A stretch of 64,000 bases of DNA from an uncultured Cryomorphaceae bacterium (GCA_913056155.1 CAJXMT010000001.1:2976-66975); one strand, 5' to 3'. Counted from the stretch's first letter, positions 2,319 through 63,523 are shown. Numbers and translations are program-made. Notes: a model not told the origin generated them from the sequence alone.

Positions 2319-2332
2319 TTTTGGTCAGAACC
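2319..2332 (+). repeat. iterated 14-mer TTTTGGTCAGAACC, exact copy (intergenic)
   Basis: Read directly from the sequence. Lies 7 nt after the ABC ATPase stop. Confidence 0.9.
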
Positions 2333-2518
2333 TCAAGCGTTTGTAAAGCGGTATTTCGAAGAATAAAAGCAAAGTACGAACCGGCTCAAGGTTTTAACCG
2401 AAAACCCCAAACAGATATTTCCAATTTACCGGGTAACCCCATTCATTTTACGAAACTACAAGCAGTACAATCACATATTTTCCGCATGACGAAACAGGAA
2501 CAAATCCCCTTAATTTCT

Positions 2519-2526
2519 TAATTTTG
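2519..2526 (+). promoter_or_regulatory. Bacteroidota -7 box TAATTTTG
   Basis: Matches TAnnTTTG. Ends 27 nt upstream of the ATG at 2553. Confidence 0.4.
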
Positions 2527-2552
2527 ACGCTTGTAAAAACTCAAATGATCAT

Positions 2553-3323
2553 ATGACAGACAAAACCACACAAGGCGGCGTAACAACCGAAATCGAAAAC
2601 GGAATAGCGACAATAGAATTTTTTCATCCTGCAAGTAACTCCCTTCCCGGAAAAGTGCTGGCTGAACTAGCCGGCGAAATCACAGCAGCGGGTAAAAACG
2701 ATCAAGCAAAAGTAATTGTTTTAAAATCCGGCGGTGACCGTGCGTTTTGTGCCGGCGCCTCATTTGATGAGCTTTTGGCCATTGAAGATTTTGAAACGGG
2801 TAAAAAGTTTTTCATGGGATTTGCGAACGTCATCAATGCAGCTCGCCAATGCCCTAAACTCATCATTGGTCGCGTGCAGGGAAAAACTGTAGGCGGCGGT
2901 GTAGGTATGGCTTCAGCAGTAGATTATTGCTTGGCCACGAAATACGCCTCCGTAAAACTCAGCGAACTCGCCATCGGGATAGGCCCATTTGTAGTGGGGC
3001 CGGCAGTTGAACGCAAGGTGGGAACCTCGGCCATGTCCCAATTGGCTATTGACGCCGGTGAATGGCAAACCGCTGAATGGGCGCGCCAAAAAGGGTTATA
3101 CACAGAAGTATTTGATACCGCAAATCAATTGGATGAAGCCGTGCACAGCCTCGCCGAAAAACTTTCAAAGTACAATCCCGATGCGATGAAGGAACTCAAA
3201 AAAATATTTTGGGAAGGCACTGAAGATTGGGATGAAAAACTGAGTTCGAGAGCTGCCCTCAGCGGCAAATTAGTGCTCGGTGATTTTACTAAAGACTTTA
3301 TTCAAAAATTCAAAAACAAATAA
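2553..3323 (+). CDS. enoyl-CoA hydratase/isomerase family protein
   Basis: Crotonase-fold motifs (FCAGASFDEL, GKTVGGGVGMA). Confidence 0.8.
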   Translation: MTDKTTQGGVTTEIENGIATIEFFHPASNSLPGKVLAELAGEITAAGKNDQAKVIVLKSGGDRAFCAGASFDELLAIEDFETGKKFFMGFANVINAARQCPKLIIGRVQGKTVGGGVGMASAVDYCLATKYASVKLSELAIGIGPFVVGPAVERKVGTSAMSQLAIDAGEWQTAEWARQKGLYTEVFDTANQLDEAVHSLAEKLSKYNPDAMKELKKIFWEGTEDWDEKLSSRAALSGKLVLGDFTKDFIQKFKNK

Positions 3324-3380
3324 ACCACTTCACACCCGGCGGTTTTAAAGCAACAATATCGCGCTTAACACCATTCCATT

Positions 3381-5123: not shown

Positions 5124-5993
5124 ATGAAAAAGATCTTATTTCCCACTGATTTTTCTGACGCCGCACAAAATGCAGAAGACTATGCTTATGAATTGGCCTT
5201 GCAATACAATTTAGAGCTGCACTTTATTCACTCTATTGATGTTACCAAAAAGTATCTCAATATGAGTATGATGAATTCAGGAGATCCTTCCGTTCCGGGG
5301 TTTGAACCCGAGTTGATTTTAAAAACGGTAGAAGAAGAAAAGAAAACCGCAAATGCTAATCTCGATAAACTCAAAGAAAAGGCGGAGAAACAGAACATCA
5401 CTTCCCAAGTGAAACTCAGTTCGGGTAATATGCATGAAGATGTGATTCAATATGCCAAAGAAAAGGAAATAGACCTGATCGTGATGGGAACTCACGGAGC
5501 AAGCGGTTTTCACGAAGCTTTTATTGGTTCAAATGCCCAAAAAGTTGTGAGGCTCTCTCCGGTTCCGGTTCTGACCATTAAGGAAAAACCCAATGACGTT
5601 AAATTTGAAAATGTTGTTTTTGCATCAGACTTTGTTGAAGATGAAATAATCGACTTGCTGCCCAAAGTAAAAGATACAGCTTCATTTTTAGGCTCCGGTT
5701 TGGATGTGGTATATATCAATACGCCAACGCATTTTGAACGTACAGATGTTTCATTAAAACGCATGATGTCTGCGCTTGAAAAACACGATGTTTCTTTTTC
5801 TCAATGCGATGTTTTTAATGATTTCGATATTGAAGACGGTATTGTGAATTATGCAAATCACCGCGATGCCGACTTGATCATCTTAATTACTCACGGTTTT
5901 AGCGGTTTGAAAAAACTGTTCAACGACAACATCACTGAAGCTGTTGTTAACAGTGCCAAAAGACCCGTTTTAAGTGTTAATTTACAGTCTTAA
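5124..5993 (+). CDS. universal stress protein (tandem Usp domains)
   Basis: Two Usp-like halves (MKKILFPTDFS..., DLIVMGTHGASG / DLIILITHGFSG). Confidence 0.75.
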   Translation: MKKILFPTDFSDAAQNAEDYAYELALQYNLELHFIHSIDVTKKYLNMSMMNSGDPSVPGFEPELILKTVEEEKKTANANLDKLKEKAEKQNITSQVKLSSGNMHEDVIQYAKEKEIDLIVMGTHGASGFHEAFIGSNAQKVVRLSPVPVLTIKEKPNDVKFENVVFASDFVEDEIIDLLPKVKDTASFLGSGLDVVYINTPTHFERTDVSLKRMMSALEKHDVSFSQCDVFNDFDIEDGIVNYANHRDADLIILITHGFSGLKKLFNDNITEAVVNSAKRPVLSVNLQS

Positions 5994-7091: not shown

Positions 7092-8584
7092 ACCTTGTAC
7101 ACCTCCATAAAATCGGCAATTTTACGATCGTCAGCCAATCGCGGAATTTTATTTTGTCCGCCCAACTTACCCCGGCTCTTCATCATCTCCACAAATCCGT
7201 TTCGTTTCACTTTTGAAACAACAAGAGGTCTTAAAATATTACCCTCAATCAAATCTTTGTAGTACGGGTTTTTTGAACACATCAACTCATTCAAAAAGGA
7301 GGAGAAACGCTCCATATTGTGCGGTTCGGTTTCAAACTCAACAAACCACTCGTGGTACGGTTTTCCCTGCGCCGGACTCACTTGAGGAGCTACGTGAAAC
7401 TCACGCACCTGAGCATCAAATTGATCCAGCGTTTCCTTCATTGCCGACTCGGCCTCCTCAGCAATAACGTGTTCGCCAAAAGCCGATATAAAGTGACTTA
7501 CACGCCCCGTTACCACAATGCGATATGGGTTTAACGATACAAATTTTATTTTATCTCCAATATTGTAAGCCCACAAACCGGCATTGGTAGAGAGTATTAT
7601 AGCGTAGTGAACATCTTTTTTCACCTGTGCCAAGGTAAGGCGCGTAGGATTTTCATTATTTATTTCATCGGCAGGCACAAATTCAAAAAACATCCCCGCA
7701 TTGGTATTGAGCAATAAACCGGGTTGCGTTTGTGAATCTTGAAAAGCAATAAAACCCTCGCTCGCCGGATACGTCTCAACAGAGGGCACTTCTTTACCTA
7801 TTAGCTTCTTAAAAATGGCGCGGTACGGCGCATAGTTTAAACCGCCGTAAACAAACAATGAAAAACCGGGGAAAACCTCAGCCACGGTTTTTTTTCCCGT
7901 TACCTCAAGTAATCTCTCAAAATACATTTGCACCCATGAGGGAATTCCGCTAATAAGGCGCATATCAGCTGTTTTGGTTTCATCTACTACCGCATCCACC
8001 TTTTTTTCCCAATCCTCAATGCAATTCGTCTCCCAAGTCGGCATTCGGTTTTTTTGCAAATAGCCCGGCACCCAATGTGCTGTAATTCCGCTCAAACGAC
8101 CCACGGGAATATTAATTTTTTTATCCAACACCGGGCTCCCCTGCAAAAACATCATTTTACCATCTAAAAACTTTGAATTCCCGGTTTCGGCAATATAGCA
8201 CAGCAGCGCATTTTTGGCTGCTTTTATATGAAAAGGCACCGATTCCTTTGTCAACGGAATATATTTGGCTCCCGAAGTTGTACCCGATGTTTTACAAAAA
8301 TAAGCGGGTACTCCCGGCCAAAGCACGTCCTTTTCGCCCTCTATGATTCGATCTACATAAGGTTTATGGCCTTCATAATCTCTCAAGGGCACGTGCTTTA
8401 CAAAATCTGCATGGGTTTTAACTTCATCAAAATTATGGTCAGAACCAAAAGCCGTTTGCCTCGCTTTGCCGATAAGTGTCACCAAGGTTTTTTCTTGAAG
8501 CTCCACAGCTTTTAATGCCTCATTGCGCACCTTTTTAGCTACGGACTTAGCATATATTTTTCCACCAAAAGATTTTATTCCCAT
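7088..8584 (-). CDS. GH3 (auxin-responsive promoter) family adenylating enzyme
   Basis: 498 aa. The FCKTSGTTSGAKYIP motif and overall layout are typical of bacterial GH3-family proteins. Confidence 0.75.
   Translation of the reverse strand: MGIKSFGGKIYAKSVAKKVRNEALKAVELQEKTLVTLIGKARQTAFGSDHNFDEVKTHADFVKHVPLRDYEGHKPYVDRIIEGEKDVLWPGVPAYFCKTSGTTSGAKYIPLTKESVPFHIKAAKNALLCYIAETGNSKFLDGKMMFLQGSPVLDKKINIPVGRLSGITAHWVPGYLQKNRMPTWETNCIEDWEKKVDAVVDETKTADMRLISGIPSWVQMYFERLLEVTGKKTVAEVFPGFSLFVYGGLNYAPYRAIFKKLIGKEVPSVETYPASEGFIAFQDSQTQPGLLLNTNAGMFFEFVPADEINNENPTRLTLAQVKKDVHYAIILSTNAGLWAYNIGDKIKFVSLNPYRIVVTGRVSHFISAFGEHVIAEEAESAMKETLDQFDAQVREFHVAPQVSPAQGKPYHEWFVEFETEPHNMERFSSFLNELMCSKNPYYKDLIEGNILRPLVVSKVKRNGFVEMMKSRGKLGGQNKIPRLADDRKIADFMEVYKV
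8443..8456 (+). repeat. iterated 14-mer, 13/14 copy (TTATGGTCAGAACC) inside the GH3 CDS
   Basis: Read directly. Followed by AAAA. Encodes G-S-D-H on the gene strand. Confidence 0.7.
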
Positions 8585-8698: not shown

Positions 8699-8712
8699 GG
8701 TTCTGACCAAAA
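8699..8712 (-). repeat. iterated 14-mer, exact copy (intergenic)
   Basis: The plus strand reads GGTTCTGACCAAAA. Lies 115 nt upstream of the GH3 start. Confidence 0.9.
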
Positions 8713-9015
8713 CACAAAAAGGAAAATAAAATAATGGTAAGTTATCGAGATGCCGATTAAGTTATTTAAAAACTCACACAGCAAAATGTGTGCTAAAATT
8801 CATTTCAAAAATCTTTTCAAAATATGATTCCCTCAAAATCATTGCGGCGACTCGGGAAAAATAAGTTATCAACTTACAGCCGGGAATTTAGTTTTTCAAA
8901 CCTATTGCATCTCCCTTTTAAGTAGCTTTATTTTGTTGCTCTTTCCTCCTTTGAAAAGAAAGAAAATTGTTTTTTCCAAGAATATCAAGTCTAGTATTTT
9001 ATAAAATTCAATGTT

Positions 9016-11571
9016 ATGGCAACAGTAAAAACAACACTCAAAACCTATACCCGCGATCAAGTTTTAAAAGAATCTTTGAAGTATTTTGATGGTGATGAGC
9101 TGGCAGCCTCTACATGGATTAACAAATACGCCATGCGATGTGAAAACGGCGAATTGGTGGAAAAAAGCCCTGAGGATATGCACAAACGTATGGCTCGAGA
9201 ATTTGCACGAATGGAAGAAGTTCACCGCAACAAAACGCACCTCAACGGCAGCTTTAAAAAGTTGAGCAGTTACGGACAAAAAAGAGACCCGCTGGTTTAC
9301 GATAAAATTTACGAGTATTTTAAAGATTTCAAGTATGTGATTCCGCAAGGCAGTGTAATGGCTGCTTTAGGCAACAAGTACATGATTGCTTCACTTTCAA
9401 ATTGTGTTGTGCTGCCTGAAATTTACGACTCGTACGGCGGCATTATGTACACCGATCAGCAGCTTACCCAATTATTTAAAAGGCGTTGCGGTGTGGGCAT
9501 TGATATTTCTACCCTTCGCCCGGCGGGAAAACACGTTTCCAATGCGGCCGGCACTACATCAGGAGCTATTTCATTTATGGAGCGTTTTTCTAACACTACC
9601 CGTGAAGTGGCGCAAAACGGCAGGAGAGGCGCTTTGATGATTACTATTGATATTGCACATCCCGATGCCGCCGATTTTATTTCCATTAAACAGGATTTGA
9701 AAAAAGTAACGGGCGCCAATATATCGGTAAGATTGAGTGATGAATTTATGGAAGCCGTAAAAGGTAAAACTACATTTACCCAACGCTGGCCCATTGATAG
9801 CGATTCTCCAAAATTCACGCAAGAGGTTAATGCCGAAGAACTGTGGAATAAAATTATTTCATGCGCACACCAAAGCGCGGAGCCCGGATTGATTTTTTGG
9901 GATCGGCAACATTATTACAGCACATCATCGGTTTATCCCGAGTTTAAAAACGTTTCAACCAATCCGTGCAGTGAAATTGCCATGCAAGGCGGCGACAGTT
10001 GCCGATTAATTGCACTTAACTTATACAACTTTGTAGAAAATCCGTTTACGCCTCAAGCCGAATTTAATTACAAAAAGTTCAAAGAGGTTACTTATGAATC
10101 TCAGCGCTTGATGGATGATTTGGTGGACTTGGAATTGGAATCCATCCAAAGGATTTTAGACAAAATCGATTCGGATCCCGAGCCGGATTACATCAAATCC
10201 GTAGAGCGCAAAACTTGGGAAACGCTTTATGAAGCCGGAAAAAAAGGTCGCCGAACCGGATTGGGTTTCACGGCTTTGGGCGATGCGGTAGCGGCACTCA
10301 ACCTGAAATTCGACTCAGATGAAGGTTTAGAGGCCATCGATAAAATCATGCGCGTGAAGTGTGAGGCTGAGTTTGATTCATCAATCGATTTGGCTCTTGA
10401 AAGAGGTGCTTTTGAAGCTTTTGATCCGGAGATTGAAAAGCAGTCGGAATTTGTTCAAATGATGGAAAAGGAAATGCCTCAAGTTCACGAAAGAATGATG
10501 AGTTGCGGCCGCAGAAATATCAGCATCAGTACGGTTGCTCCAACGGGAACTTTGAGTATGTTGGCCCAAACCTCATCGGGAATTGAGCCCGTTTTTATGA
10601 CCCATTACAAGCGCCGCAGAAAAATAAATGCCAATGACACCGATGCGCGCGTTGATTTCACTGACGAAATGGGCGATACCTGGCAAGAGTTTACTGTATA
10701 TCACCCTAAAGTGAAGGAGTGGATGGAAATCAGCGGCCAAAAGAAACCGGAGAAAAGTCCGTATTACAAAGCCACCGCTCCTGATATTGATTGGATCAAG
10801 CGCGTAAAAACGCAAAGTATCGTACAAAAATATGTAACGCACTCCATCAGTTCAACCATCAACTTACCTTCAACGGTGAGCGTTGAAAAAGTAGGAGACA
10901 TTTACCTGGAAGCCTGGAAAATGGGTTTAAAGGGCATTACGGTTTACCGCGACGGTTCAAGAAGCGGCGTACTTATTTCAGACGAGAAAAAAGAAGAAAA
11001 AACCACCGAGACATTTGAGGAAAACCGCATTAAAAAACGCCCTAAGGTTTTAGAGGCTGAAGTGATTCGTTTCCAAAACGAAAAAGAAAAATGGATTGCC
11101 GTAGTGGGTTTGCTGGATGGAATTCCGTATGAAATTTTCACCGGTAAAGCCGAGGATGTTTTTGCATTGCCGCCTTGGTGTGAAACCGGGCGCGTAATTC
11201 GAAACAAAACCAAAAACAAAAAATCGCGGTACGATTTCCAATTTACCGACCAAGCCGGATATAAAGTAACCATTGAAGGATTGAGCCGGTCATTCAATAA
11301 AGAGTATTGGAATTACGCCAAATTGATATCGGGCATATTGCGTCACGGTATGCCCCTGCCCTATGCCGTTGAATTGGTTGAAGATTTAAATTTATATTCA
11401 GATCACATCAACACTTGGAAAAACGGGGTGGCCAGGGCGTTAAAAAAGTTCATTCCGGACGGAACACCGCGAACAGATTTGAAATGTCCCGATTGCGGAG
11501 ACCCCAAAGGACTCGTTTACGAAGAAGGTTGCTTAAAGTGTAAAAGCTGCGGCCATACCAAATGCGGGTGA
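9016..11571 (+). CDS. nrdJ: class II (adenosylcobalamin-dependent) ribonucleotide reductase
   Basis: 851 aa. Carries the NPCSEI active-site region, GLGFTALGDA, and a C-terminal Cys cluster CPDCG...CLKCKSCGHTKCG. Confidence 0.85.
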   Translation: MATVKTTLKTYTRDQVLKESLKYFDGDELAASTWINKYAMRCENGELVEKSPEDMHKRMAREFARMEEVHRNKTHLNGSFKKLSSYGQKRDPLVYDKIYEYFKDFKYVIPQGSVMAALGNKYMIASLSNCVVLPEIYDSYGGIMYTDQQLTQLFKRRCGVGIDISTLRPAGKHVSNAAGTTSGAISFMERFSNTTREVAQNGRRGALMITIDIAHPDAADFISIKQDLKKVTGANISVRLSDEFMEAVKGKTTFTQRWPIDSDSPKFTQEVNAEELWNKIISCAHQSAEPGLIFWDRQHYYSTSSVYPEFKNVSTNPCSEIAMQGGDSCRLIALNLYNFVENPFTPQAEFNYKKFKEVTYESQRLMDDLVDLELESIQRILDKIDSDPEPDYIKSVERKTWETLYEAGKKGRRTGLGFTALGDAVAALNLKFDSDEGLEAIDKIMRVKCEAEFDSSIDLALERGAFEAFDPEIEKQSEFVQMMEKEMPQVHERMMSCGRRNISISTVAPTGTLSMLAQTSSGIEPVFMTHYKRRRKINANDTDARVDFTDEMGDTWQEFTVYHPKVKEWMEISGQKKPEKSPYYKATAPDIDWIKRVKTQSIVQKYVTHSISSTINLPSTVSVEKVGDIYLEAWKMGLKGITVYRDGSRSGVLISDEKKEEKTTETFEENRIKKRPKVLEAEVIRFQNEKEKWIAVVGLLDGIPYEIFTGKAEDVFALPPWCETGRVIRNKTKNKKSRYDFQFTDQAGYKVTIEGLSRSFNKEYWNYAKLISGILRHGMPLPYAVELVEDLNLYSDHINTWKNGVARALKKFIPDGTPRTDLKCPDCGDPKGLVYEEGCLKCKSCGHTKCG

Positions 11572-12279: not shown

Positions 12280-12330
12280 AAAAGCCCCGGCTTTTTCCTT
12301 CCGCTCGGGAAGGAAAAGCGCGGGGCTTGA
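12280..12330 (-). repeat. 51-nt long-hairpin repeat, copy 1 (terminator-like on the minus strand)
   Basis: AAAAGCCCCGGCTTTTTCCTTCCGCTCGGGAAGGAAAAGCGCGGGGCTTGA. Identical at 48/51 positions to 16943..16993, in the same orientation. Folds into a stem of about 20 bp followed by T6 on the minus strand. Confidence 0.85.
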
Positions 12331-14684: not shown

Positions 14685-16520
14685 TTAACCAAAACTCATT
14701 AAATCACCACTCCCACTTGGATTACTGTAAATTCCACCACCAATTTCAAACACTTTAAACTCTCTTCGTAATATTCTAAAATGCTTTGTGAAACCGCCAC
14801 TTAAAATGGGATAAGTTATGTCCTTTTCCGGTTCATCTAAATCTTCATATTCTTTTAATTGCCTACTGCCATTCAACAAACCTTGAGTTACAGCAACATT
14901 TTTACAATACTTGGGATACCCCCCCATCATAGCTAAGGTGTCATAAAGTTCCACACCTAAGGAATGTCGTGAATAATTATAATCCAAAAGAGATCCTGAT
15001 CTGGTATCTGCGTGAAACAGCAACATTTGTTTTGCAGCTGTGGAACCTAAAATTGGTGACCAATGCATCGGACCGTCAATAGCCATTGAATAACCCCCTA
15101 ATCCCATTGCCATTGATGGCAGACCGCCAATTGCAGTATTACCCACTAATGCCTCCCAAATTTCTTGTATGGCCAATGGAATATTAGCTCCTTGCTGCGG
15201 GCTATCCATTGAAATGAACAATCTGGTATTGTGTCTTTGCTCAAAACGACACTCTGTAGCATAACTTGAGGATTCCATATAATTTAAAGCATAACGAGTT
15301 ACTAATCCTCCCATGCTGAATCCCATAATCACAAATTGCTCATTGCTATTCAGGTATGGGCCACACTTTAAATAATCAAGAAACTTCACTAATGCACGAC
15401 CATTTTTCTTTACACTTCTGTAAACATTATTTCCGTGATAGTTCACAATATAAACATCATAACCTTCATTGCGCAATTCTGTAATACGACTTCTTTGCAA
15501 ATCTCGATAATGCTCCGGGAAACTTCTATTTATTTTCACGTTTAGATTAGGCAAGGTATTAACCACTTTTTCTATTGCACCTCCAAATGGAATAAAGGGA
15601 CCAAAGCCGGTTACATAAATGAAGGCCTTTCGGTGTTCTGGTTCTATATCATCCGGCAAACATGGCTCATAATGGCCAACATTAAAACCATCAAAATCAA
15701 ATTGAAAATCAGGTTGGTTTTCAGTTAAATCAATATCACTGGCAATATGCATTTTAGATAAGGAATGTTTATAATCCTCCCATTCATCTTCAGGCACATT
15801 TTCACCAATATAATCAGTTGATTGTAAACGGAAATGAATGGGGTAATGACCTATTGTCGGATAAGTCACAGCAACATAATCTACACCGAATGTATTTATA
15901 GTATGGTAGCCGGTACCATCACCAAAATCAATCTGCAACCTGTATTGCATATCATTAAACTCATGAGAAGTGAATTGATCTGCAAATATCATTGCAGGAT
16001 CTATTCTGTAGGTAGCATTCCTAAACATCAAAGTGCTATTAAAAATTGACCCGCTAAAAATATTGCTATATAAAAATGGATCCGGTGCGCCCGGTTTATG
16101 AGTAATCCAATTATTTACTTCATCTACATCAAAATACTCGTCAGTATAGAAAACCGAAGTATCATAAACCCAATGGAAATTATAATTCATCAACATAACA
16201 GGCACTGTATCCCCAATGGACTCTTGATTTAGCGCGTCAGAAATATCACAGATATTCATTAAATTACTTGTATCGTGTGCGGCATAGAACATGTGTTCAT
16301 ACGCCGCTCTCCATACATTTGAATTCACGGTATCCTCATCATTATAGGGACTAAAAAAAAATTCAGGTAAAACTTGAACAGATTGATCCCATGCTCTATT
16401 TGAAGTAGGTTTTTGTACCACCCACCGAAAAGAATGCCTCAAACTATCTTGTGCTTCTATTAAAGGCCAACTCATGTGACATCTTATATTTTGAGTTTTG
16501 GAGCTCAAAGGAAAAACCAC
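14685..16520 (-). CDS. alpha/beta-hydrolase (lipase-like GFSMGG) ORF lacking both an intact signal peptide and a sorting domain
   Basis: GxSxG nucleophile-elbow motif (MGFSMGGL). The GTG start sits inside a hydrophobic stretch. Ends at a TAA in frame with the next ORF. Confidence 0.55.
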   Translation of the reverse strand: MVFPLSSKTQNIRCHMSWPLIEAQDSLRHSFRWVVQKPTSNRAWDQSVQVLPEFFFSPYNDEDTVNSNVWRAAYEHMFYAAHDTSNLMNICDISDALNQESIGDTVPVMLMNYNFHWVYDTSVFYTDEYFDVDEVNNWITHKPGAPDPFLYSNIFSGSIFNSTLMFRNATYRIDPAMIFADQFTSHEFNDMQYRLQIDFGDGTGYHTINTFGVDYVAVTYPTIGHYPIHFRLQSTDYIGENVPEDEWEDYKHSLSKMHIASDIDLTENQPDFQFDFDGFNVGHYEPCLPDDIEPEHRKAFIYVTGFGPFIPFGGAIEKVVNTLPNLNVKINRSFPEHYRDLQRSRITELRNEGYDVYIVNYHGNNVYRSVKKNGRALVKFLDYLKCGPYLNSNEQFVIMGFSMGGLVTRYALNYMESSSYATECRFEQRHNTRLFISMDSPQQGANIPLAIQEIWEALVGNTAIGGLPSMAMGLGGYSMAIDGPMHWSPILGSTAAKQMLLFHADTRSGSLLDYNYSRHSLGVELYDTLAMMGGYPKYCKNVAVTQGLLNGSRQLKEYEDLDEPEKDITYPILSGGFTKHFRILRREFKVFEIGGGIYSNPSGSGDLMSFG

Positions 16521-16942: not shown

Positions 16943-16993
16943 AAAAGCCCCGGCCTTTTCATTCCGCCCGGGAAGGAAAAGCGCGGGGCTTGA
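16943..16993 (-). repeat. 51-nt long-hairpin repeat, copy 2 (acts as the ssb terminator)
   Basis: AAAAGCCCCGGCCTTTTCATTCCGCCCGGGAAGGAAAAGCGCGGGGCTTGA. Ends 19 nt before the ssb stop at 17012 in plus-strand coordinates, so it is downstream of the minus-strand gene. Confidence 0.85.
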
Positions 16994-17687: not shown

Positions 17688-19229
17688 ATGAGCAATTCAA
17701 AAATCACCGAAACACTAAAGGTTTTAGGTGTAAAATCTGAAAATGCCGGTACGCACTCCGGTTCTGACCAATATTCAAAAGGAGAAAAGATCACCTCAAC
17801 CTCACCGGTTGACGGAAGCACTATTGGCAGTGTTACTGCTACTACAGCCGAGGAATATCAAACTGCCGTTTCAAATGCCGAAAAAGCTTTTTTGCAGTGG
17901 CGTTCTTTACCCGCTCCGCAAAGGGGTGAAATCGTTCGCCAATTTGGCGATAAATTACGTGAGAATAAAGAAGCATTAGGCCGCTTGGTTTCTTTTGAAA
18001 TGGGAAAATCACTTCAAGAGGGTTACGGCGAGGTGCAGGAAATGATTGACATTTGTGATTTTGCCGTGGGTTTATCACGTCAACTTTACGGTCTCACCAT
18101 AAAATCAGAGCGCCCTCAGCATCACATGCAGGAACAATGGCATCCGTTGGGCATTGTAGGAATTATCTCCGCTTTTAACTTCCCGGTTGCCGTTTGGGCC
18201 TGGAATACAGCTATAGCTTGGGTTTGCGGTGATGTGTGCATTTGGAAACCCTCTGAAAAAACTCCACTTACCGGAGTGGCTTGCCAAAACATAATTACAG
18301 CCGTTTTGCAAGAAAATAATATGCCTACAGCTGTTTCAACCTTAATAAACGGAGATCGTCACGTGGGAGAACTCATGACACAAGACGACAAAGTGCGCTT
18401 GGTAAGCGCCACCGGGAGCATCAGAATGGGCAAACAAGTGGCACAAACAGTGGGCGCTCGACTGGGCAAAACCATTTTGGAGTTGGGCGGTAATAATGCA
18501 CTAATTGTCACTCCCGATGCTGATTTAAATATGACTTTGGTGGGCGCCGTATTCGGCGCAGTAGGCACGGCCGGCCAACGGTGCACCTCAACGCGCAGAC
18601 TCATTGTACACGACAGCATTTACGATAAAGTCAAAGACACATTGATAAATGCTTACAAGCAATTGAAAATCGGTGATCCGTTAGATGAGAGCAATCATGT
18701 AGGTCCCGTTATTGACCGCGATGCAGTGAATAACTACCAAGCCGCCTTGAAAAAAGCTGTGGAAGAAGGCGGTAAAATTATTGTTGAAGGCGGAGTATTG
18801 GAAGGCGCCGGATACGAAAGCGGTTGCTACGTAAAACCGGCTGTGGTGGAAGCCGAGAACTCTTTTGAAATAGTTCAAGAAGAAACATTTGCTCCCATTT
18901 TATACTTAATCAAATACACGGGCGATGTAAACGATGCACTTGACCTTCAAAATGGTGTGAAGCAAGGACTTTCATCGGCCATTATGACCAATAACATGAG
19001 AGAGGCGCATACCTTTTTATCCGAGACAGGATCGGACTGTGGAATTGCCAACGTAAATATAGGTACCTCAGGTGCTGAAATAGGCGGTGCATTCGGCGGT
19101 GAAAAAGAAACCGGTGGCGGTCGTGAGTCGGGCTCTGACGCTTGGAAAGCCTACATGCGCCGACAAACCAACACGCTCAACTATTCAACTGAAATTCCAC
19201 TGGCTCAGGGAATCAAGTTCAAAATTTAA
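17688..19229 (+). CDS. aldehyde dehydrogenase family protein (ALDH7 / aminoadipate-semialdehyde dehydrogenase-like)
   Basis: 513 aa with ELGGNNA and GQRCTSTRR catalytic motifs. Confidence 0.85.
   Translation: MSNSKITETLKVLGVKSENAGTHSGSDQYSKGEKITSTSPVDGSTIGSVTATTAEEYQTAVSNAEKAFLQWRSLPAPQRGEIVRQFGDKLRENKEALGRLVSFEMGKSLQEGYGEVQEMIDICDFAVGLSRQLYGLTIKSERPQHHMQEQWHPLGIVGIISAFNFPVAVWAWNTAIAWVCGDVCIWKPSEKTPLTGVACQNIITAVLQENNMPTAVSTLINGDRHVGELMTQDDKVRLVSATGSIRMGKQVAQTVGARLGKTILELGGNNALIVTPDADLNMTLVGAVFGAVGTAGQRCTSTRRLIVHDSIYDKVKDTLINAYKQLKIGDPLDESNHVGPVIDRDAVNNYQAALKKAVEEGGKIIVEGGVLEGAGYESGCYVKPAVVEAENSFEIVQEETFAPILYLIKYTGDVNDALDLQNGVKQGLSSAIMTNNMREAHTFLSETGSDCGIANVNIGTSGAEIGGAFGGEKETGGGRESGSDAWKAYMRRQTNTLNYSTEIPLAQGIKFKI
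17760..17773 (-). repeat. iterated 14-mer, 13/14 copy inside the ALDH CDS
   Basis: The plus strand reads GGTTCTGACCAATA, encoding G-S-D-Q. Confidence 0.7.
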
Positions 19230-20998: not shown

Positions 20999-21072
20999 TG
21001 GAGCATAACGGATTCGAACCGTTGACCTCTACACTGCCAGTGTAGCGCTCTAGCCAACTGAGCTAATGCCCC
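20999..21072 (-). tRNA. tRNA-Ala (anticodon GGC)
   Basis: I folded the cloverleaf by hand: acceptor GGGGCAT/ATGCTCC with G3:U70, anticodon loop CTGGCAG, T-loop TTCGAAT. CCA is not encoded. Confidence 0.9.
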
Positions 21073-37484: not shown

Positions 37485-37487
37485 AAA

Positions 37488-49642: not shown

Positions 49643-51253
49643 ATGACGCTTCATTATTCTTTACGTACATTTCTACCGGGCATACTGTTATTTTTGCTGA
49701 GCTTGGGTACGGTTCTGACCAAAAGCAACTCACTTAGAGCCCAAACTGAGCAAGACTATGTTGATTATTACGATAAAAATGAAAAACACAAACGCAGCGA
49801 AGGGAAATACAAAAACGGAAATGAGCACGGCACTTGGCAGTTTTGGTACAAAAACGGACAGCTCAAGGAATATGCGGAATTTGTAAAAGGTTACAGACAC
49901 GGCAAAAATGCCACATATTATGAAAACGGAAACCGGGAGTTTTTGGGCTTTTTCGATTATGACCGTCGGGACAGTATTTACAAAGCTTGGTACAAAAACG
50001 GCAACCTCAAAGAGGAAGGTCAATATGTGTACAACTTGAGACACGGCACTTGGAAGTATTATTATGAAAACGGCGATTTACGCAAAGTAGAGCAAGCCGA
50101 CTCCGGATTAATCAGACTTGAGAAACTCGTGAGTCCCAAAGGTGAAGTGTGGGTTGAAAACGGCGAGGGCACCATAAAGTATTTTCATGATAACGGAAAG
50201 CTGAAAGAAAGAGCACGCATCAAAAACGGCCGGCGAAACGGTGAGGCCGCGTACTTTTTTGAAACCGGCGAAAAAGCCATTGATGCTTTTTATAAAAACG
50301 GTAAAAAATCCAACCAATGGATTCATTACTATCCCCAAGGCGATACCCATCAAGTTATTCATTATAATCAGAACCGAAAAGAGGGTGAATACACCGCCTA
50401 TTTCCCCAACGGACAAGTGGATAAAAACGGGCCGTATCATAATGATATGCGAAACGGAAAGTGGGAGTGGTTTTATAATGACGGGCAAAAAGCGCAAACG
50501 GGATATTACGAAAACGACCTCCAAAGCAAAAACTGGAAAGTGTATTACCCCAACGGAAAACTCGACGAAACCGGCGATTACCTCAATAATGAAAAACACG
50601 GCTTTTGGGAAATGTATTACGAAGACGGTCAATTGCAATCAAAAGGCGAATTCAGAAAAGGCGAAAAACACGGTGATTGGAAAACCTATTATACCAACGG
50701 CCAAGTTTGGACGGAGGGCACCTTTAATGAAGGGCTTGAAACCGGCCTTTGGAAAGCGTACCACAAAAATGGGAAACTCGAAAGCAAAGGAGAATTTGAA
50801 GCCGGAAAGATGCACGGCGATTGGAAATCGTGGTATCAAAGCGGTCAAATACGCTATACAGGACAAATGGATCACGGCCTCAAAACCGGCGAATGGGAGT
50901 ATTATTACGAGAACGGAAAATTGCGCGAAAAAGGCGCATACCAAAACGGCCTTAAACACGGATGCCGCCAAGTTTATAATCCTACCGGCATTTTATACAG
51001 TGACGGCTGCTATGATGAAGGTCTCAAAACGGGCACTTGGATTTTCAATTACAAAACCGGGCAAAAACAACGCGAGGAAGAATACAAAAAAAACCGCTTG
51101 CACGGTACTTCAAAATCATGGCACCAAGGCATGCAGCTGCGAAGCGAGCGCGAATACAAAAACGGCAGGCTGCACGGTACATTCAAACAATACGATAAAC
51201 GCGGGAATGTAGTGGTTGAAGCCCGCTATAAAAACGGCGTAAAAGTGGACTAA
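49643..51253 (+). CDS. MORN-variant repeat protein (YwqK-like), secreted
   Basis: Signal peptide followed by about 20 units of the form G.W..YY.NG.L...G.Y..G..HG. Confidence 0.75.
   Translation: MTLHYSLRTFLPGILLFLLSLGTVLTKSNSLRAQTEQDYVDYYDKNEKHKRSEGKYKNGNEHGTWQFWYKNGQLKEYAEFVKGYRHGKNATYYENGNREFLGFFDYDRRDSIYKAWYKNGNLKEEGQYVYNLRHGTWKYYYENGDLRKVEQADSGLIRLEKLVSPKGEVWVENGEGTIKYFHDNGKLKERARIKNGRRNGEAAYFFETGEKAIDAFYKNGKKSNQWIHYYPQGDTHQVIHYNQNRKEGEYTAYFPNGQVDKNGPYHNDMRNGKWEWFYNDGQKAQTGYYENDLQSKNWKVYYPNGKLDETGDYLNNEKHGFWEMYYEDGQLQSKGEFRKGEKHGDWKTYYTNGQVWTEGTFNEGLETGLWKAYHKNGKLESKGEFEAGKMHGDWKSWYQSGQIRYTGQMDHGLKTGEWEYYYENGKLREKGAYQNGLKHGCRQVYNPTGILYSDGCYDEGLKTGTWIFNYKTGQKQREEEYKKNRLHGTSKSWHQGMQLRSEREYKNGRLHGTFKQYDKRGNVVVEARYKNGVKVD
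49711..49724 (-). repeat. iterated 14-mer, exact copy inside the signal-peptide coding region
   Basis: The plus strand reads GGTTCTGACCAAAA, encoding V-L-T-K. Confidence 0.9.
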
Positions 51254-52258: not shown

Positions 52259-52272
52259 TTTTGGTCAGAACC
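52259..52272 (+). repeat. iterated 14-mer, exact copy between convergent genes
   Basis: Read directly as TTTTGGTCAGAACCAAG. The intergenic gap is only 32 bp. Confidence 0.9.
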
Positions 52273-54668: not shown

Positions 54669-55441
54669 TACTCGTTGTTTTTCAATTGCTCAAAAAGCAC
54701 ATGTGTACTATCCACCGTTTTTAACGGCAGCATTTTAAACGAGGGGCGAAGTTGATAAAAATTATTGAAATTGCGCAAGTAAAATGTATCTTGATATTGA
54801 TACAGGGCTCCGTCTTGGTCATAATCTACACCGTACATCAACAATTTTAAGTTACCCATTTTATAACCCGCCGTATTAAAGGGCGTTTGCCAAAACTCTA
54901 CGGTATACATTTTTTCATCGCTTTCTTTAATTTCGCTTTGCTTCTCCAGCAATTCACGAGTTATTGAATCTTGCTCAACATCGGGATCAAAAATATGCAC
55001 CGCTAATTTAACCCTTCCCGTCAACTCGGTTTCATCCACTTCCTCTTGACTTTTCACAACCTCACCCTCCTCAGCCGGTGCGGCGGTTGTTGTATCGGGC
55101 AATTGAGTTGCGGCGGACTCATAAGTCAACGGCGTATCTGTTTCAAGGGTGTCTGCCTCCTCAAATTCTAAAGCAGCCGAATCAATCAACGAGGTATCGT
55201 TTTTCAACTCTATGCCGTTGGGATATTGGTCAGAGCCCGAACTATCATCAGCCGGTTTTTTCGTATTTTGCTTTATTGCTTCGTCGCTTTCGCCGGGCAA
55301 AGACACCCGCCCCACCGGTTCATCATCACCTACGTGATTTTGTCGCGCTTGCGGAGTTAATTGGGGTTCTGACCAAAAAAATACGCCCAAAACAACAGCA
55401 AGGGAGGCCAACAAAATGATCAAAATGAATTTTTTGCCCAC
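54668..55441 (-). CDS. hypothetical membrane-anchored protein with an acidic linker
   Basis: N-terminal TM helix, a D/E/T-rich linker and a C-terminal globular region. Contains two copies of the iterated motif. Confidence 0.5.
   Translation of the reverse strand: MGKKFILIILLASLAVVLGVFFWSEPQLTPQARQNHVGDDEPVGRVSLPGESDEAIKQNTKKPADDSSGSDQYPNGIELKNDTSLIDSAALEFEEADTLETDTPLTYESAATQLPDTTTAAPAEEGEVVKSQEEVDETELTGRVKLAVHIFDPDVEQDSITRELLEKQSEIKESDEKMYTVEFWQTPFNTAGYKMGNLKLLMYGVDYDQDGALYQYQDTFYLRNFNNFYQLRPSFKMLPLKTVDSTHVLFEQLKNNE
55365..55378 (-). repeat. iterated 14-mer, exact copy inside a CDS
   Basis: The plus strand reads GGTTCTGACCAAAA. The gene strand encodes F-W-S-E-P just after the TM anchor. Confidence 0.9.
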
Positions 55442-55512
55442 GGATTTAAGATTTAGCTACAAATATAAACAGCTTACCCGTGAAAAGCTCAAAATGAGTG
55501 TCAAATGTATGA

Positions 55513-56031
55513 TCATAATGTTTCGCCAATACGCCTGTAAACAGTAAAAAAGCGCTTGCGAGCCGGGGTGCTGTTCAGCAATTCACGCTTGTAAGATTGA
55601 ATGGCCTCAAAAAAACGATGCTCTAATTGTGCCCGATTCACGCGATAAACTACAGTTGATTTTTGCTCAAACAGCTTTTCGCCGGTTAAATCGTAAATAA
55701 AGCGATACTGCCTTTTTGTTGCCGAATTTTGAGAGTGTGTTCCAAAACTGTGTGTTACGGCATTGCGAACTTGGTAAAGCAACTCTGCGCTTAATTCATT
55801 CAACTGCATGTAGCGCCGATAAAACAAAACGGTTTTTTTTGCGCTGCGCTTATAGCCCGATTTCCCGGTGTGCATTTGAGCCAGTAAATCAAGTGCGGAG
55901 AATACGCAAAAACAACGTGAAATTACATTTTCATCGGGCGTGTTTCGCAATTCGCGCAAACATGCTGCTAAAACAGATTTTCGATTTTGAGCATCAAATA
56001 AACGCTCGATTATTTTTTCCTCATCACTCAT
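55513..56031 (-). CDS. hypothetical cytoplasmic helical protein with an Rx4H (HEPN-like) motif
   Basis: YQVRNAVTHSFG contains R-N-x3-H. The ATG start overlaps the upstream stop (ATGAGTGA). Confidence 0.5.
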   Translation of the reverse strand: MSDEEKIIERLFDAQNRKSVLAACLRELRNTPDENVISRCFCVFSALDLLAQMHTGKSGYKRSAKKTVLFYRRYMQLNELSAELLYQVRNAVTHSFGTHSQNSATKRQYRFIYDLTGEKLFEQKSTVVYRVNRAQLEHRFFEAIQSYKRELLNSTPARKRFFTVYRRIGETL

Positions 56032-56632
56032 AGTCACCCGATTGGTATTCCTCCCGGCTCAAGTATTTGATTTCCCTGATTACAGTAAAACCAAATAATC
56101 CGCGTGCCACATCATACATGATGTAATCGGCATCCCAAATCTCGGGCTGTTCGGCACTGTCGATAATTCGCAAACCCTCTTCTTTCGCCAAGGCGCTATC
56201 GGCAAAATGAATTTTGACATCATGCGGACTAAACCCGGTGCCGATATGATCTACATCCACAATTTCATAAACTTCAATGCGTCTGTTATCCACAATCAAA
56301 AAGTTGAGCCAAAACAACAAACCCACCGTGAGCGGCCCCAATCCCAAAACGTTGGCTAATACCACTTCAAGCCGCTCCATTTTAAGCGTGTCGCGATACC
56401 AACTGTAGGGTAAAACAAGCAATATCACGCTAAAAAAAATAATGAGGCGCCACATGAGGTGGAGTTCAATCAATGTGTATTTAGAAACGTAAGCAATGGA
56501 AAAGCCGCCGCCGAACAAACCGATTAACATCAGGCTGTGCGACCAATGCCAATCGTTCCCTCTAATTTGATCCTCAACCGGTTTGTTTTGAAATTGAGCT
56601 TTTTTCGGCTTAAATCGATCAAGAAAACTCAT
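56024..56632 (-). CDS. hypothetical 3-TM membrane protein with a soluble C-terminal domain
   Basis: Three hydrophobic helices followed by a domain of about 90 aa. Shares an ATGA overlap with the CPBP gene. Confidence 0.5.
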   Translation of the reverse strand: MSFLDRFKPKKAQFQNKPVEDQIRGNDWHWSHSLMLIGLFGGGFSIAYVSKYTLIELHLMWRLIIFFSVILLVLPYSWYRDTLKMERLEVVLANVLGLGPLTVGLLFWLNFLIVDNRRIEVYEIVDVDHIGTGFSPHDVKIHFADSALAKEEGLRIIDSAEQPEIWDADYIMYDVARGLFGFTVIREIKYLSREEYQSGDYE

Positions 56633-58683: not shown

Positions 58684-58697
58684 TTTTGGTCAGAGCC
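58684..58697 (+). repeat. iterated 14-mer, 13/14 copy (TTTTGGTCAGAGCC), intergenic
   Basis: Read directly. Lies 49 nt after the dusB stop. Confidence 0.75.
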
Positions 58698-60148: not shown

Positions 60149-60186
60149 AACCCATCAATTTAGAGAAATAGCAAAAATCGCACACA

Positions 60187-60936
60187 TCACTCCACCTCTT
60201 TGCGCGGCGGTTTGCGTTTGAGTTCGAAATTTTCACCCAAATACACTTTTCGTACTTTTTTATCGGCGGCTAAATCCTCAGCACTGCCGGCTTTTAATAT
60301 GTTGCCCTCAAAAAGCAAGTATGCGCGATCTGTAATAGAAAGTGTTTCTTGCACGTTGTGATCGGTAATGAGAATCCCTATATTCTTGTATTTGAGTTTA
60401 AACACGATATTTTGAATATCCTCAACAGCAATAGGGTCAACGCCCGCAAAAGGTTCATCGAGTAAAATGAACTTAGGATCCACGGCCAGTGCTCTGGCAA
60501 TTTCTGTTCGGCGCCGTTCACCCCCCGAGAGTAAATCACCGCGGTTGGTACGTACGTGTCCTAAAGAAAACTCATCAATCAGCTCTTCCAACTTTTCTTC
60601 CCGCTCCTTTTTGGTCAGATCCCGCATTTCCAAAATGGCCATAATATTGTCTTCCACGCTCAACTTTCGAAATACCGATGCTTCCTGCGGGAGATATCCG
60701 ATTCCCAAATTAGCGCGCTTGTACATGGGAAAGTGTGTAATTTCGGTTTGATCCAGAAACACCTTGCCGCCGTTGGGTTTTACCAAACCCACAATCATGT
60801 AAAAGGATGTGGTTTTCCCTGCACCGTTGGGGCCTAACAACCCCACGATTTCACCTTGGTTTACGCTCACCGAGACTCCCTTTACAACGGTTCTGCTTTT
60901 GTATTTCTTGACGATATTTTCGGCTCTGAGTTCCAT
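60187..60936 (-). CDS. lptB: LPS export ABC transporter ATP-binding protein
   Basis: [24 protein letters not shown] and the LptB-like C-terminus. Confidence 0.85.
60609..60622 (+). repeat. iterated 14-mer, 13/14 copy (TTTTGGTCAGATCC) inside the lptB CDS
   Basis: Read directly. The gene strand encodes D-L-T-K-K. Confidence 0.6.
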
Positions 60937-60946
60937 AAAGATTCGA

Positions 60947-63523
60947 TTAAAATGAAAGTTGGGCCTTGGCTCTGATCCCGATACCGCTAATGCTGCCCAA
61001 AGAGCTTATGTTCGGGTTGTCTAGATAATTCAGCCGCTTCACCACATCAACGCGCAATAGTTTTAAAATATTTTCAATCCCGGCGCTTACCTCCATGTAG
61101 GGTTCATCCCGCAACCTGCGCTCTTCGGTTAAAACAGGGTGGTAGTACAAATTGGGGTTATCAAAGTTTCGGTTTTGCTGCGTTACATCGGCCCAAATGG
61201 CTTTTGCAGATATTACCGCACGCCATTTAAGCTTGTCCATAAAAGGTACTTGCGTGGTTAACAAACCATTGAAATGGTGCTCCATCATCAAACTTACCGA
61301 TTGATCTCCTGCAAACTCCACAAAATTCATCATGTTGAATGAGCGATCGTCATAGGCAAAAGTTTCATTCCCCCTGAATATTTCCAACAGCGGGTAAGGT
61401 ACAGTTCCGAATATTCGATTGGCTTCGAGCAAAACATCGGTGGTGCCGAATATACCCAGCTTAAATCGTTTCTCGGTTGAAAAGTAAATTTTATGGTATT
61501 CAAAGGCACCCAATAACTCCGGACTGTAGGTGTACTGCAACTCAAATACGGGTGCTGTGGTTTTGATGGGCGCTCTTGAAAAATGGCCTTGCACGAATTT
61601 CTCGTTAAGTGCTAATCGGGTTCCCAAGGTGAACTCGGTTACCTGAATCGGAGATCCGGTTTGGTCTTCATTCAGTCTGATTTCCGGCTCGTAAATAACC
61701 GGCCTGAATTCATTGCGATACGTGGTGGTGATTTTTCTGTTTTTAATTTGTATGAAGTTTTGAAGCCCTATAAACCACTCTTTGGTAAAACGGGTAATAT
61801 ACTCCTCTTTGTAAAACATATCGTCACCGGGTGTTCGCCGGAGCGAGAGAAAAATATTATCTTGATTGCGCCAAGGCACATCAAAACCGGGTTGATAAAT
61901 ATCATTGATGTATTTAAACTCCAGTTTGGTAATGGGCTTGGTGCTGAAAAAGTACTCTGCACCGGCATTTACCTTGAACCGCTCATCGCGAAGACCGTAG
62001 GCCGTATGCGCCGAAAAGCGCCAATTTTCATGAAAGTTTTTATTGGTGCGACCGCCGAATTTAAGTCGAATACCTTCTACATCATTATAGCTTAAAAAGG
62101 TGGTGAACGGGCCGATGTCGAATTTTTTACCGGCCTTAATATAACCGCTCACCAAAAGCTCTCCAAGGTTTACAATGGTATTAAACTCGGGCAGCCTTTG
62201 AATAGTATCCACCATTTCATATATCCCTTTTTCCTCTTCTGTTAACGTATCTAAGCGGTGGTTTTGCCAAAAATCTTCATCGCGATAATTGGCACTGTCC
62301 ATGATTTCGGATTCGTTGAGCCCACTGTAGTAATCATCGCTGCGCGGTTTGTTGATCATCAAATTATCATAAGTTACCGTTTTGGTGTTGTATAAACCCA
62401 TGCCTCTGCTCGAGGGTTGCACATCAACCACCATTTTGTCTTTCACCACCATCCATCCCAGGGAATCTTGATATTCAAACTCCTGCTCAATTCGTAAATC
62501 TTCCAAAAAGTTGACGTTAATGCGTTTATCGATATTGAGCTCAATCTCCTTTACCGCGTAATTTTGTGAACTGTCTGCCACCATCATATGGCCGGTAAAG
62601 GCCACCAATTGCGGGTTTCGCGGCATAAAAGACAGCTTTTTGTATTTCTCACCCTCCACTTCAATAGAATCTGTAACGTAATAGCGATATACGTTGGGGC
62701 CCAATTTGGATATGGGAGAGGTAAAGGACTTATCCAGCAAATCAATTCTACTGTCGTAAATATCTACTTCGGATCCCAGTTTGTCCAAAAATTGGCTGAT
62801 GCCCTCGCCCATCACCCCATCCTCAAAGCCCGAAATGCGTAACCCCTTCACTATCTCACGCGTTGTCTTCGGTTCTGACCGAAAATAAATTTTTGATGCT
62901 TTTTCTTTTATGAGTACAGGAACATAGGGCTTGCCGTTTACCTCACTGGTGTCCACATAGTCAAAAAGTACTTGAAAGCTTTTTAATGAGGTACGCTTGG
63001 TCCATTCCTCAGTGAAATTATTGAGGTCAAATTGATCTTTCACGTATTTATCGTACTCCAAATATTTGAGCTTCTCACTTTGTAACCGATTTTCATCGCG
63101 GTGATCCAGCACCTGCCTGATAAGCGATACGGCAGGATTATCTTTGTTTTTATAGCGGTCATTCGATGCTTGAATAGTCACCTCTTGAAGCTCCTCAATA
63201 TTTGATTCCAACTCAAAATCTATGGTTTGCTTTTCACCTTTCACCAGTTGTTTTACTACAGGCTTATATCCCATAAAGGAGGCCTTAATTTCATTCGATG
63301 CCCATTGGGTTTCCAGCTGATAATAGCCTTTCATATCTGTAGTAGTGCCAATATTTTTGCCCACCAGCGAAATATTCACAAAAGGCAGTGGTTCACCGGT
63401 CTCTACATCGGTTACGGTACCGTTAATCTCAGTGTATTGAGCGTGCAGCAAAGACTGTGTAAAACACAGCATTACAAGGAGTAACGAATAAAAAAACTTC
63501 ACTTTTCGCGATGCACTGTTCAT
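60947..63523 (-). CDS. CarboxypepD_reg-like domain plus DUF5686 family outer-membrane protein
   Basis: 858 aa. Signal peptide and an N-terminal [21 protein letters not shown] domain. The large C-terminal region is typical of DUF5686. Confidence 0.65.
62871..62884 (-). repeat. iterated 14-mer, 13/14 copy inside the DUF5686 CDS
   Basis: The plus strand reads GGTTCTGACCGAAA. The gene strand encodes F-R-S-E-P. Confidence 0.65.

Follow-up and report, generated by a model that had tools for sequence, protein, structure and literature searches.

A short iterated DNA word with uptake-signal-like features in an uncultured relative of Salibacter (Flavobacteriales)

How often bacteria tag their own DNA is a broad question, and it is raised in a concrete form by the 64,000-nt stretch of DNA analysed here (the window; GCA_913056155.1, CAJXMT010000001.1:2976-66975), in which one 14-nt word, TTTTGGTCAGAACC, recurs in genes and spacers. 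What would keep such a word in place? The organism, from a salt lake, was placed by its M17 aminopeptidase and RecA as an uncultured member of the Flavobacteriales near Salibacter, with 60% identity to the aminopeptidase of a Salibacter sp. metagenome-assembled genome (MAG) and 83–84% identity to the RecA of S. halophilus. The answer that we put forward, tentatively and with a probability somewhat below even, is that the word may be an uptake-signal-like self tag for natural transformation. To our knowledge, only two families, both proteobacterial, take up DNA in a sequence-specific way, and we know of no DNA uptake tags in the phylum Bacteroidota.

Both strands of the window were searched for TTTTGGTCAGAACC, one mismatch being allowed, and 17 sites were obtained, nine exact and eight with one mismatch. 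Their number agrees with the initial annotation, which had already excluded chance. In our test, 100 dinucleotide shuffles gave a mean of 0.04 sites and a maximum of one. The Markov expectation for the 14-mer was 0.0006–0.0013 at orders 2–4 and 0.036 at order 5 trained on the window, while the core GGTCAGAACC was present 16 times against 0.03–0.05 expected (orders 2–4). In a k-mer survey of the window, no second word was comparably enriched. The sites, one per 3.8 kb, used the two strands about equally, as had been claimed (eight plus, nine minus), and the GC skew of the window is monotonic. A polar signal of the Chi or KOPS type was rejected on this 8/9 strand symmetry in a replichore-like window (P = 0.04 against a Chi-like skew of 75%). 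The finding that nine of the 17 copies are intergenic also stood; by the gene map only 8.2% of the window is intergenic, yet this fraction holds nine copies (binomial P = 2e-6), a six-fold enrichment.

Sites with 0, 1, 2 and 3 mismatches numbered 9, 8, 7 and 11, respectively, where chance would give about nine in total, nearly all of them with three mismatches. The nine perfect copies compare with eight that are distributed among 42 possible single variants. From this spectrum, perfect copies are dominant and are followed by a tail of decayed copies, with decayed relatives of the word at 5567, 55224, 1938, 33378, 33624 and 19626. GGTCAGA..CC was invariant, and mismatches were nearly confined to the TTTT run and the A of GAACC. 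The information content was about 25 bits, where about 13 bits suffice for the observed site density. The extended consensus is a partial dyad, TTTTGGT-CAGA-ACCnAA, with two 7-nt arms about an invariant CAGA, and its conserved part consists of the left arm and the centre only. An asymmetric invariant core had been described, and GGTCAGAACC is indeed not palindromic, the dyad being partial and outer. The full dyad TTGGT-CAGA-ACCAA is present at 33458 and 52259 as annotated, and the copy at 8433, omitted from that list, carries it too. Three copies had been said to extend to TTTTGGTCAGAACCCCAAT; only those at 37471 and 55365 do so, and that at 8699 reads ...ACCCAATT, with one C fewer. Around the window copies, the flanks share a T-rich 5' side and a weak nnAA 3' side and are otherwise unrelated, with the similarity ending within about 4 nt. 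Separately, GGTTCTGACC as a tRNA T-arm/B-box or as an invertase or recombinase site was ruled out by spacing and copy number.

The copies in the window are given below, followed by three more divergent sites; L127 and L131 are loci of two relatives, with aminopeptidase identities of 96% and 73%, respectively. The second copy had been placed at 8443, and its true start is 8433.

2319–2332, plus strand: exact; intergenic, 6 nt after the stop codon of an MlaF-like ABC gene, sense.
8433–8446, plus strand: one mismatch, TTATGGTCAGAACC; in the GH3 gene, antisense, reading GSDH; the same variant lies at the orthologous codons of L131.
8699–8712, minus strand: exact; in the spacer between the divergent GH3 and ribonucleotide reductase genes; the L131 spacer has a copy too.
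17760–17773, minus strand: one mismatch, TATTGG...; in the aldehyde dehydrogenase (ALDH) gene, reading GSDQ; L131 has GGC GTA AAT (GVN) there.
20104–20117, minus strand: exact; in the M17 aminopeptidase gene, reading VLTK; codons identical in L127 and L131.
23898–23911, plus strand: one mismatch, TTTAGG...; intergenic, 5' of a TM2 gene; the L127 ortholog is TTTCGG...
28569–28582, plus strand: one mismatch, TCTTGG...; 28 nt after the stop codon of a Na/H exchanger gene, sense; core kept in L127.
28702–28715, minus strand: exact; 23 nt 5' of the ATG of an M23 peptidase gene; forms an inverted pair with 28569, 119 nt apart; kept in L127.
31257–31270, minus strand: one mismatch, CTTTGG...; in dxs, sense, reading LWSEP.
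33458–33471, plus strand: exact; full dyad TTTTTGGTCAGAACCAAAA; 58 nt after the stop codon of an EamA gene, 5' of a terminator-like hairpin and bcp-recA.
37471–37484, minus strand: exact, with CCCCAAT extension; 3 nt after the purS stop codon, sense.
49711–49724, minus strand: exact; in a MORN-repeat gene, antisense, reading GTVLTKS just past the hydrophobic core of the signal peptide.
52259–52272, plus strand: exact; lies within the 32 nt that separate the convergent GT9 and YceG genes and forms the tip of a larger hairpin (z = -3.25).
55365–55378, minus strand: exact, with CCCCAAT extension; in a gene for a membrane-anchored hypothetical protein, sense, reading FFWSEPQ past the transmembrane segment.
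58684–58697, plus strand: one mismatch, GGTCAGAGCC; 48 nt after the stop codon of a Dus gene, sense.
60609–60622, plus strand: one mismatch, GGTCAGATCC; in the gene of an LptB-like ABC ATPase, antisense, reading DLTKK.
62871–62884, minus strand: one mismatch, TTTCGG...; in a DUF5686 gene, sense, reading FRSEP.
5567–5580, minus strand: two mismatches with the core intact, TAATGGTCAGAACC; in a Usp gene, reading VLT.
55224–55237, plus strand: two mismatches, TATTGGTCAGAGCC.
19626–19639, plus strand: degenerate, TTTCTTTCAGAACC; in the aminopeptidase gene; the L131 ortholog has the intact core AAG GTC AGA ACC.

Copies beyond the window were obtained by two scans. In the species-representative genomes, a scan with a 19-mer subfamily of the word gave six matches, three of them informative; these three lie on separate contigs of the soda-lake MAG 'Cryomorphaceae bacterium T3Sed10_378' (PXEK01), one 8-kb locus of which has three exact 14-mers. 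A metagenome scan with the 18-mer TTTTGGTCAGAACCCCAA gave 17 contigs from two related samples (P_1C and P_2C_Liq). Sixteen of them do not overlap the window, and the remaining one, L178, is 99.9% identical to window positions 55115–56307, including the copy at 55365. With the ascertained copy excluded, seven more copies were found in 70 kb of those contigs and MAG loci, hundreds of times above chance. No viral contig matched the 18-mer, which is uninformative, and the bare 14-mer matches listed there were single chance matches. Because the contigs do not overlap and the additional copies were not ascertained, the word is, as far as these assemblies allow, genome-wide in this population, at roughly one per 4–9 kb. 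Confinement to one region had been named as an outcome that would count against the element; the 16 non-overlapping contigs of the same population, the second MAG and three Salibacter assemblies (S. halophilus GCA_008806325.1 and the MAGs GCA_031580565.1 and GCA_031581065.1) show that the word is not so confined.

Related genomes had also been proposed as a place to look for the word or a diverged dialect, and both were found there, orthologous copies in close relatives and a dialect in Salibacter. L127 and L131 have the word at orthologous sites, namely in GH3 (with the same TTAT variant), the spacer between GH3 and ribonucleotide reductase, ALDH, the aminopeptidase, the spacer between the tetratricopeptide repeat (TPR) and TM2 genes, and, for both copies there, the spacer between the Na/H exchanger and M23 genes. 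In orthologous spacers, the core was retained where much of the flank has diverged. At the aminopeptidase site, the codons of the clade are GTT CTG ACC AAA (VLTK), those of Salibacter make a near-match (GTT CTG ACT), and outgroups have GTA CTC GAC AAG, GTG CTT AAA AAG or GTT TTA GAC AAA (VLD/VLK). At the ALDH site, the window and L127 read GGT TCT GAC CAA (GSDQ) and L131 reads GGC GTA AAT CAA (GVNQ), with the flanking codons otherwise identical. Conversely, the intact L131 copy AAG GTC AGA ACC corresponds to a decayed TCT TTC AGA ACC in the window; this is the site at 19626, and since it is orthologous to an intact core, gain or decay must have occurred in place. No indel was present at the aligned codon sites. 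The differences were clustered substitutions, some of them non-synonymous (GVN to GSD; VLD/VLK to VLT). As read from these alignments, the word arises within existing sequence through substitutions, some of which alter the protein, and it turns over slowly.

These alignments bear directly on a possible origin of the copies as leftovers or ends of some miniature mobile element, such as a miniature inverted-repeat transposable element (MITE), a repetitive extragenic palindrome (REP) or an insertion sequence (IS) terminus. Two pairs of copies in Salibacter sp. do share a conserved spacer of about 50 nt, as such an element would. In the window, however, flank similarity extends at most about 4 nt on each side, eight copies lie inside open reading frames (ORFs), and the copies within conserved codons show no indel relative to word-free homologues. 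Because the codon alignments show in-place substitution without indels, a MITE or IS remnant is excluded for the window copies, and we give this origin almost no credence. Location within a larger mobile repeat had been named at the outset as a finding that would make the word an ordinary transposon remnant; the unrelated flanks and the in-place substitutions contradict it.

In Salibacter sp. and the cultured S. halophilus, the word takes the form of a dialect, TTYGGTCAGA(A/G/T)CC, at 0.36–0.89 per kb. At one locus of a Salibacter sp. MAG (L134), GGTCAGA occurs 19 times in 21.4 kb, on both strands (10 plus, 9 minus) and in four reading frames, always followed by NCC (A six times, G seven, T five, C once) and mostly with TTC or TC ahead of it. 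The same pattern, at 0.36–0.43 per kb, was seen at another locus of that MAG, in a second Salibacter MAG and in the cultured type species S. halophilus. One orthologous copy differs between two Salibacter species solely at the free position, G versus T, while the window lineage fixes T at position -1 and A at the free position. No copy of GGTCAGANCC was found in five neighbouring lineages examined over 17–21 kb each, namely GCA_965662345.1, Acidiluteibacter ferrifornacis and three metagenomic relatives; the first of these has the gene order of Salibacter, and its RecA is about equally close. Given its presence in the window lineage and Salibacter and its absence from these five neighbours, the word is, on the loci compared, a single-clade trait with lineage dialects around an invariant core.

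The setting of the copies was examined by Pfam and by gene calls on L186, a contig 100% identical to the window. The window is a housekeeping region with MlaEF, GH3, ribonucleotide reductase, ALDH, M17 aminopeptidase, dxs, bcp-recA, purS, dapF, purD, the LptB-like ATPase and type IX secretion cargo proteins. The host genes named in the initial annotation agree with the Pfam matches, dxs through PF13292/PF02779 on L186. The Pfam matches of the window also include recA and ssb, and no competence gene is among them. The real start of the aminopeptidase gene lies later than that of its 503-aa ORF. The genes that hold the eight genic copies of the window are unrelated, and the copies run along or against the gene and differ in frame. 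When 46 copies from the window lineage were taken together, about 40% fell outside long ORFs, and the genic ones use all five stop-free frames (GSDQ 7, VLTK 8, FWSEP/FRSEP 5, FGQN 5, LVRT 2). A promoter element or regulon operator would account for the copies upstream of genes at 28702, 23898 and 8699, and TTTG, which the word contains, is the Bacteroidota -33 motif. It does not account for a set of which half lies within genes, in either orientation, with start codons 23 to 303 nt away and one copy between convergent genes; moreover, one copy per 3.8 kb is too dense for a regulon, and the consensus is nearly exact. We therefore regard such a role as very improbable, and the earlier judgement that a simple promoter or operator role does not fit is upheld.

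Among the window-lineage copies no more than 80 nt from a gene 3' end (for example window 2319, 37471 and 52259, L138 1781, L156 633, L161 519 and L163 1564), sense outnumbers antisense by 13 to 3; this count rests on ORF-based gene calls and on loci of which half had been ascertained through one subfamily. The purS gene (37487–37747, minus strand, 86 aa; PF02700 on L186) was absent from the 100-aa ORF list, and since 37471 starts 3 nt past its stop codon, this 'intergenic' copy is stop-adjacent; counting it, the ratio becomes 14:3. Many of these copies start 0–10 nt after the stop codon, ahead of a terminator hairpin. Inside genes, antisense is the commoner orientation, at 14:8 in the window lineage and 10:7 in Salibacter L134.

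The folding of the copies was compared with that of shuffled sequences. Single copies at 2319 and 58684 fold no better than shuffles (z = +0.9 and +1.4); good folds were confined to copies that are paired or bear the dyad. For single copies, a role as RNA hairpin or terminator was thereby rejected. A search against Rfam gave no RNA family at any copy; the sole match was a tRNA. The window has single copies and one pair 119 nt apart only. In Salibacter, an inverted pair at 235/265 of L134, between convergent genes, folds at -27 kcal/mol (z = -5.6), and one at 15786/15850 of L195 has z = -3.9.

These data allow a polar punctuation signal to be weighed, which would act in sense at gene ends either as DNA (the site of a roadblock or terminator factor) or as RNA of the 3' untranslated region (a protein-binding or processing site). 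The excess of sense copies near 3' ends, many of them 0–10 nt past the stop codon, and the antisense lean of the genic copies are what it would produce. About one third of the genic copies, however, are sense and conserved (for example 31257, 55365 and 62871), and antisense genic copies were made by non-synonymous substitution and kept, which an RNA or terminator role leaves unexplained. With single copies folding at the level of shuffled controls and the limits on the 13:3 count given above, we consider this explanation improbable.

At least four copies within genes coincide exactly with the point where a signal peptide or membrane anchor ends, and they do so in three frames or orientations: FGQNP in L125 (1930) and L152 (1770), FFWSEPQ at 55365 and GTVLTKS at 49711. 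The FGQN reading sets Gln right after a plausible cleavage site, and an N-terminal Gln is preferred in secreted proteins of Bacteroidota. The CCCCAA(T) extension as a mere trace of signal peptides (FGQNP) was ruled out, because the same extension is present in non-coding, stop-adjacent copies. The anchor-end copies fit a build-up in poorly constrained protein segments, as for the uptake signal sequences (USS) of Pasteurellaceae, copies of which are described as occupying such segments and altering amino acids (Findlay and Redfield 2009; PMC2817400).

Conversely, 15.8 kb of accessory surface-protein genes has no copy (P ~0.008, post hoc). This copy-free DNA comprises a 5.4-kb block at 12.25–17.69 kb, which is absent from L131, and 10.4 kb of PKD and SprB cargo genes. 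One of the latter, at 42262–49107 on the minus strand, is word-free and encodes a 2281-aa protein with SprB-repeat, fn3 and beta-helix regions and a type IX secretion C-terminal domain; its DNA shows a 228-nt periodic repeat (families D1–D6).

Taken at the sequence level, the word is over-represented, strand-symmetric, present in all frames, dominated by perfect copies, of in-place origin, conserved at orthologous positions and restricted to one clade. These features suggest a lineage-specific self tag on double-stranded DNA that would be maintained genome-wide regardless of strand, frame and gene. The likeliest driver would be sequence-biased DNA uptake in natural transformation, as for the DNA uptake sequences (DUS) of Neisseria and the USS of Pasteurellaceae. 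A surface or periplasmic DNA receptor of a Flavobacteriales-type competence machinery may prefer fragments with (T)TTYGGTCAGANCC. Word-bearing fragments would then be taken up and recombined more often, so that point mutations creating the word would spread and decayed copies would be replaced; copies would gather where their cost is lowest, in spacers, just past stop codons and in linkers after signal peptides. Competence of the clade, biased uptake and the existence of a receptor are what we infer. In Riemerella, also of the Flavobacteriales, natural competence, a preference for self DNA and an unusual machinery including proteins of unknown function have been described, and no uptake sequence has been identified (PMC7965970, PMC8459023).

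The likeness to the DUS of Neisseriaceae (ATGCCGTCTGAA and its dialects; Frye et al. 2013, PMC3630211) extends to a short non-palindromic word far above chance and strand-symmetric, located in genes and spacers and enriched in spacers, with perfect copies dominant and clade dialects around an invariant core, here GGTCAGA..CC. The inverted pairs of Salibacter that form hairpins downstream of genes may be a further likeness, since pairs of DUS and USS do the same. In contrast to DUS, the sequence is unrelated, the host belongs to Bacteroidota, the density is 0.1–0.9 per kb as compared with about 1 per kb, a T-tract and a partial dyad are present, and neither a type IV pilus nor a ComP receptor is known here. 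The TCTGA shared with the Neisseria DUS was judged a coincidence. With USS (Hin type AAGTGCGGT, Apl type ACAAGCGGT), the word shares a core with A/T-rich flanks, two subclade dialects, copies that are mostly coding in some lineages (Salibacter) and lie in poorly constrained segments with amino-acid changes, an origin by point mutation and conserved orthologous positions. It differs from USS in the same respects as from DUS, and also in its sense bias directly past stop codons. The analogy to DUS and USS drawn in the initial annotation fits each sequence-level feature that gave a clear outcome, and the one to cyanobacterial HIP1 (highly iterated palindrome) is a poorer fit, since the invariant core here is no palindrome. 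Similarly, REP elements, bacterial interspersed mosaic elements and MITE-type repeats are abundant and spacer-enriched, with some pairs forming hairpins after genes, but they are longer, extragenic and spread by insertion, while the word lies inside codons and arises by substitution.

Uptake was ranked first because it is the only well-understood process that gives this combination: dialects, an origin by point mutation, copies kept at orthologous sites, pairs that may resemble terminators, and scarcity in accessory DNA. Stated in full, this would make the word the first uptake sequence beyond the Proteobacteria, a Salibacter-clade (T)TTYGGTCAGANCC used by a Flavobacteriales-type machinery, with dialects limiting gene flow between the populations of soda lakes and those of salterns; we think that this may be so, with slightly more reserve. 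We did not file the word as a member of DUS or USS, because the functional criteria that define them lie beyond sequence comparison. Several points weigh against uptake. Neither experiment nor genome survey ties the clade to competence. The density in the window lineage, one per 4–9 kb, is several-fold below that of DUS or USS. The sense bias beside gene 3' ends is not predicted by a pure uptake drive, although strand composition or stop-codon context may bias the placement of the T run and so reconcile the two. The partial dyad TTTTGGT-CAGA-ACCnAA is more typical of the site of a dimeric DNA-binding protein, and an abundant chromosomal protein co-evolving with its sites would meet all of the sequence-level features. 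In a limited literature collection, nothing relevant was found on the word or on uptake sequences in Bacteroidota or Flavobacteriales.

In the strongest alternative, the copies would form an array of sites bound by an abundant chromosomal protein with sequence specificity, be it nucleoid-associated, chromosome-organising or a defence-related marker of self. Such a protein would date to the common ancestor of the window lineage and Salibacter, with its specificity drifting along with the sites. It would explain the two 7-nt arms around the invariant CAGA, the orthologous sites kept in spacers and genes, the clade restriction with its dialect, and the copies at gene boundaries. The sites are, however, far more exact than usual sets of binding sites (about 25 versus about 13 bits, with perfect copies dominant), and only the left arm and the centre of the dyad are conserved. 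The known arrays parS, matS, NBS and SBS are 10–100 times rarer, and no candidate protein was identified. We judge this explanation unlikely on balance, and still a serious one.

A by-product of the kind that HIP1 may represent is a further alternative to the uptake tag: a methylation, nicking or repair enzyme acting on GGTCAGA would bias mutation or gene conversion, and the word would have no signal role. HIP1 shows that iterated words can exist without a known signalling role, and over-representation in all contexts and frames, the origin by point change and the clade specificity agree with this idea. Like the word, HIP1 (GCGATCGC) is short, highly iterated, coding and non-coding, conserved, lineage-specific and of unproven function. 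Unlike the word, with its asymmetric, non-palindromic core, HIP1 is a perfect palindrome tied to cognate methyltransferases; here, no methyltransferase link was found, and neither a methyltransferase nor a nickase gene is among the Pfam matches of the window. Targets of restriction-modification are, in addition, usually avoided rather than enriched. A by-product of this kind is, in our judgement, improbable.

If the word is an uptake signal, the phenomenon would extend to a new phylum, and the word would give a handle on the DNA receptor in the little-studied competence of Bacteroidota; the preference of Riemerella for self DNA could then be explained as a possibly general trait of Flavobacteriales. 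If it is not, some protein or repair process writes an 18-bp pattern into hundreds of genes at a cost in amino acids. S. halophilus is cultured and carries the word, and therefore the hypothesis is directly testable, and the specificity and the receptor could be found. The word and its dialects would moreover serve as practical markers for binning the metagenomic contigs of the clade and for spotting recently acquired DNA.

Other elements were observed along with the word. In Salibacter sp., the pairs at 15786–15860 and 18727–18803 of L195 share a spacer of about 50 nt, GCCGGAAATRC..ATTAYGTARACTCMGG, and an inverted pair also lies at 235–274 of L134; a small palindromic element with the word at both ends may exist in that lineage. 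The tRNA gene matched by Rfam (68.5 bits) lies at 20999–21072 on the minus strand, between the aminopeptidase and TPR genes.

A 51-nt palindromic element, AAAAGCCCCGGC..GGGAAGGAAAAGCGCGGGGCTTGA, is present in the window as two direct copies that are 94% identical (12280–12330 and 16943–16993) and fold at -38 and -29 kcal/mol (z = -5.2 and -4.1). The copies flank a low-GC block of three genes (a hypothetical protein, a type IX secretion cargo protein and a DUF676-like protein), which is free of the 14-mer and missing between the SIS and ALDH genes in the relative L131. No further copy of the element was found in the loci analysed. The two may be terminator-type repeats at the boundary of an indel or island. 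Finally, 5' of the ribonucleotide reductase gene (9016–11571), blocks within 8770–8900 of the window are strongly conserved with L131, while the rest of the spacer has diverged. Among these blocks are the palindrome CACACAGCAAAATGTGTG and AAAAATAAGTTATCAACT; they may be NrdR-type operator boxes or a leader element.

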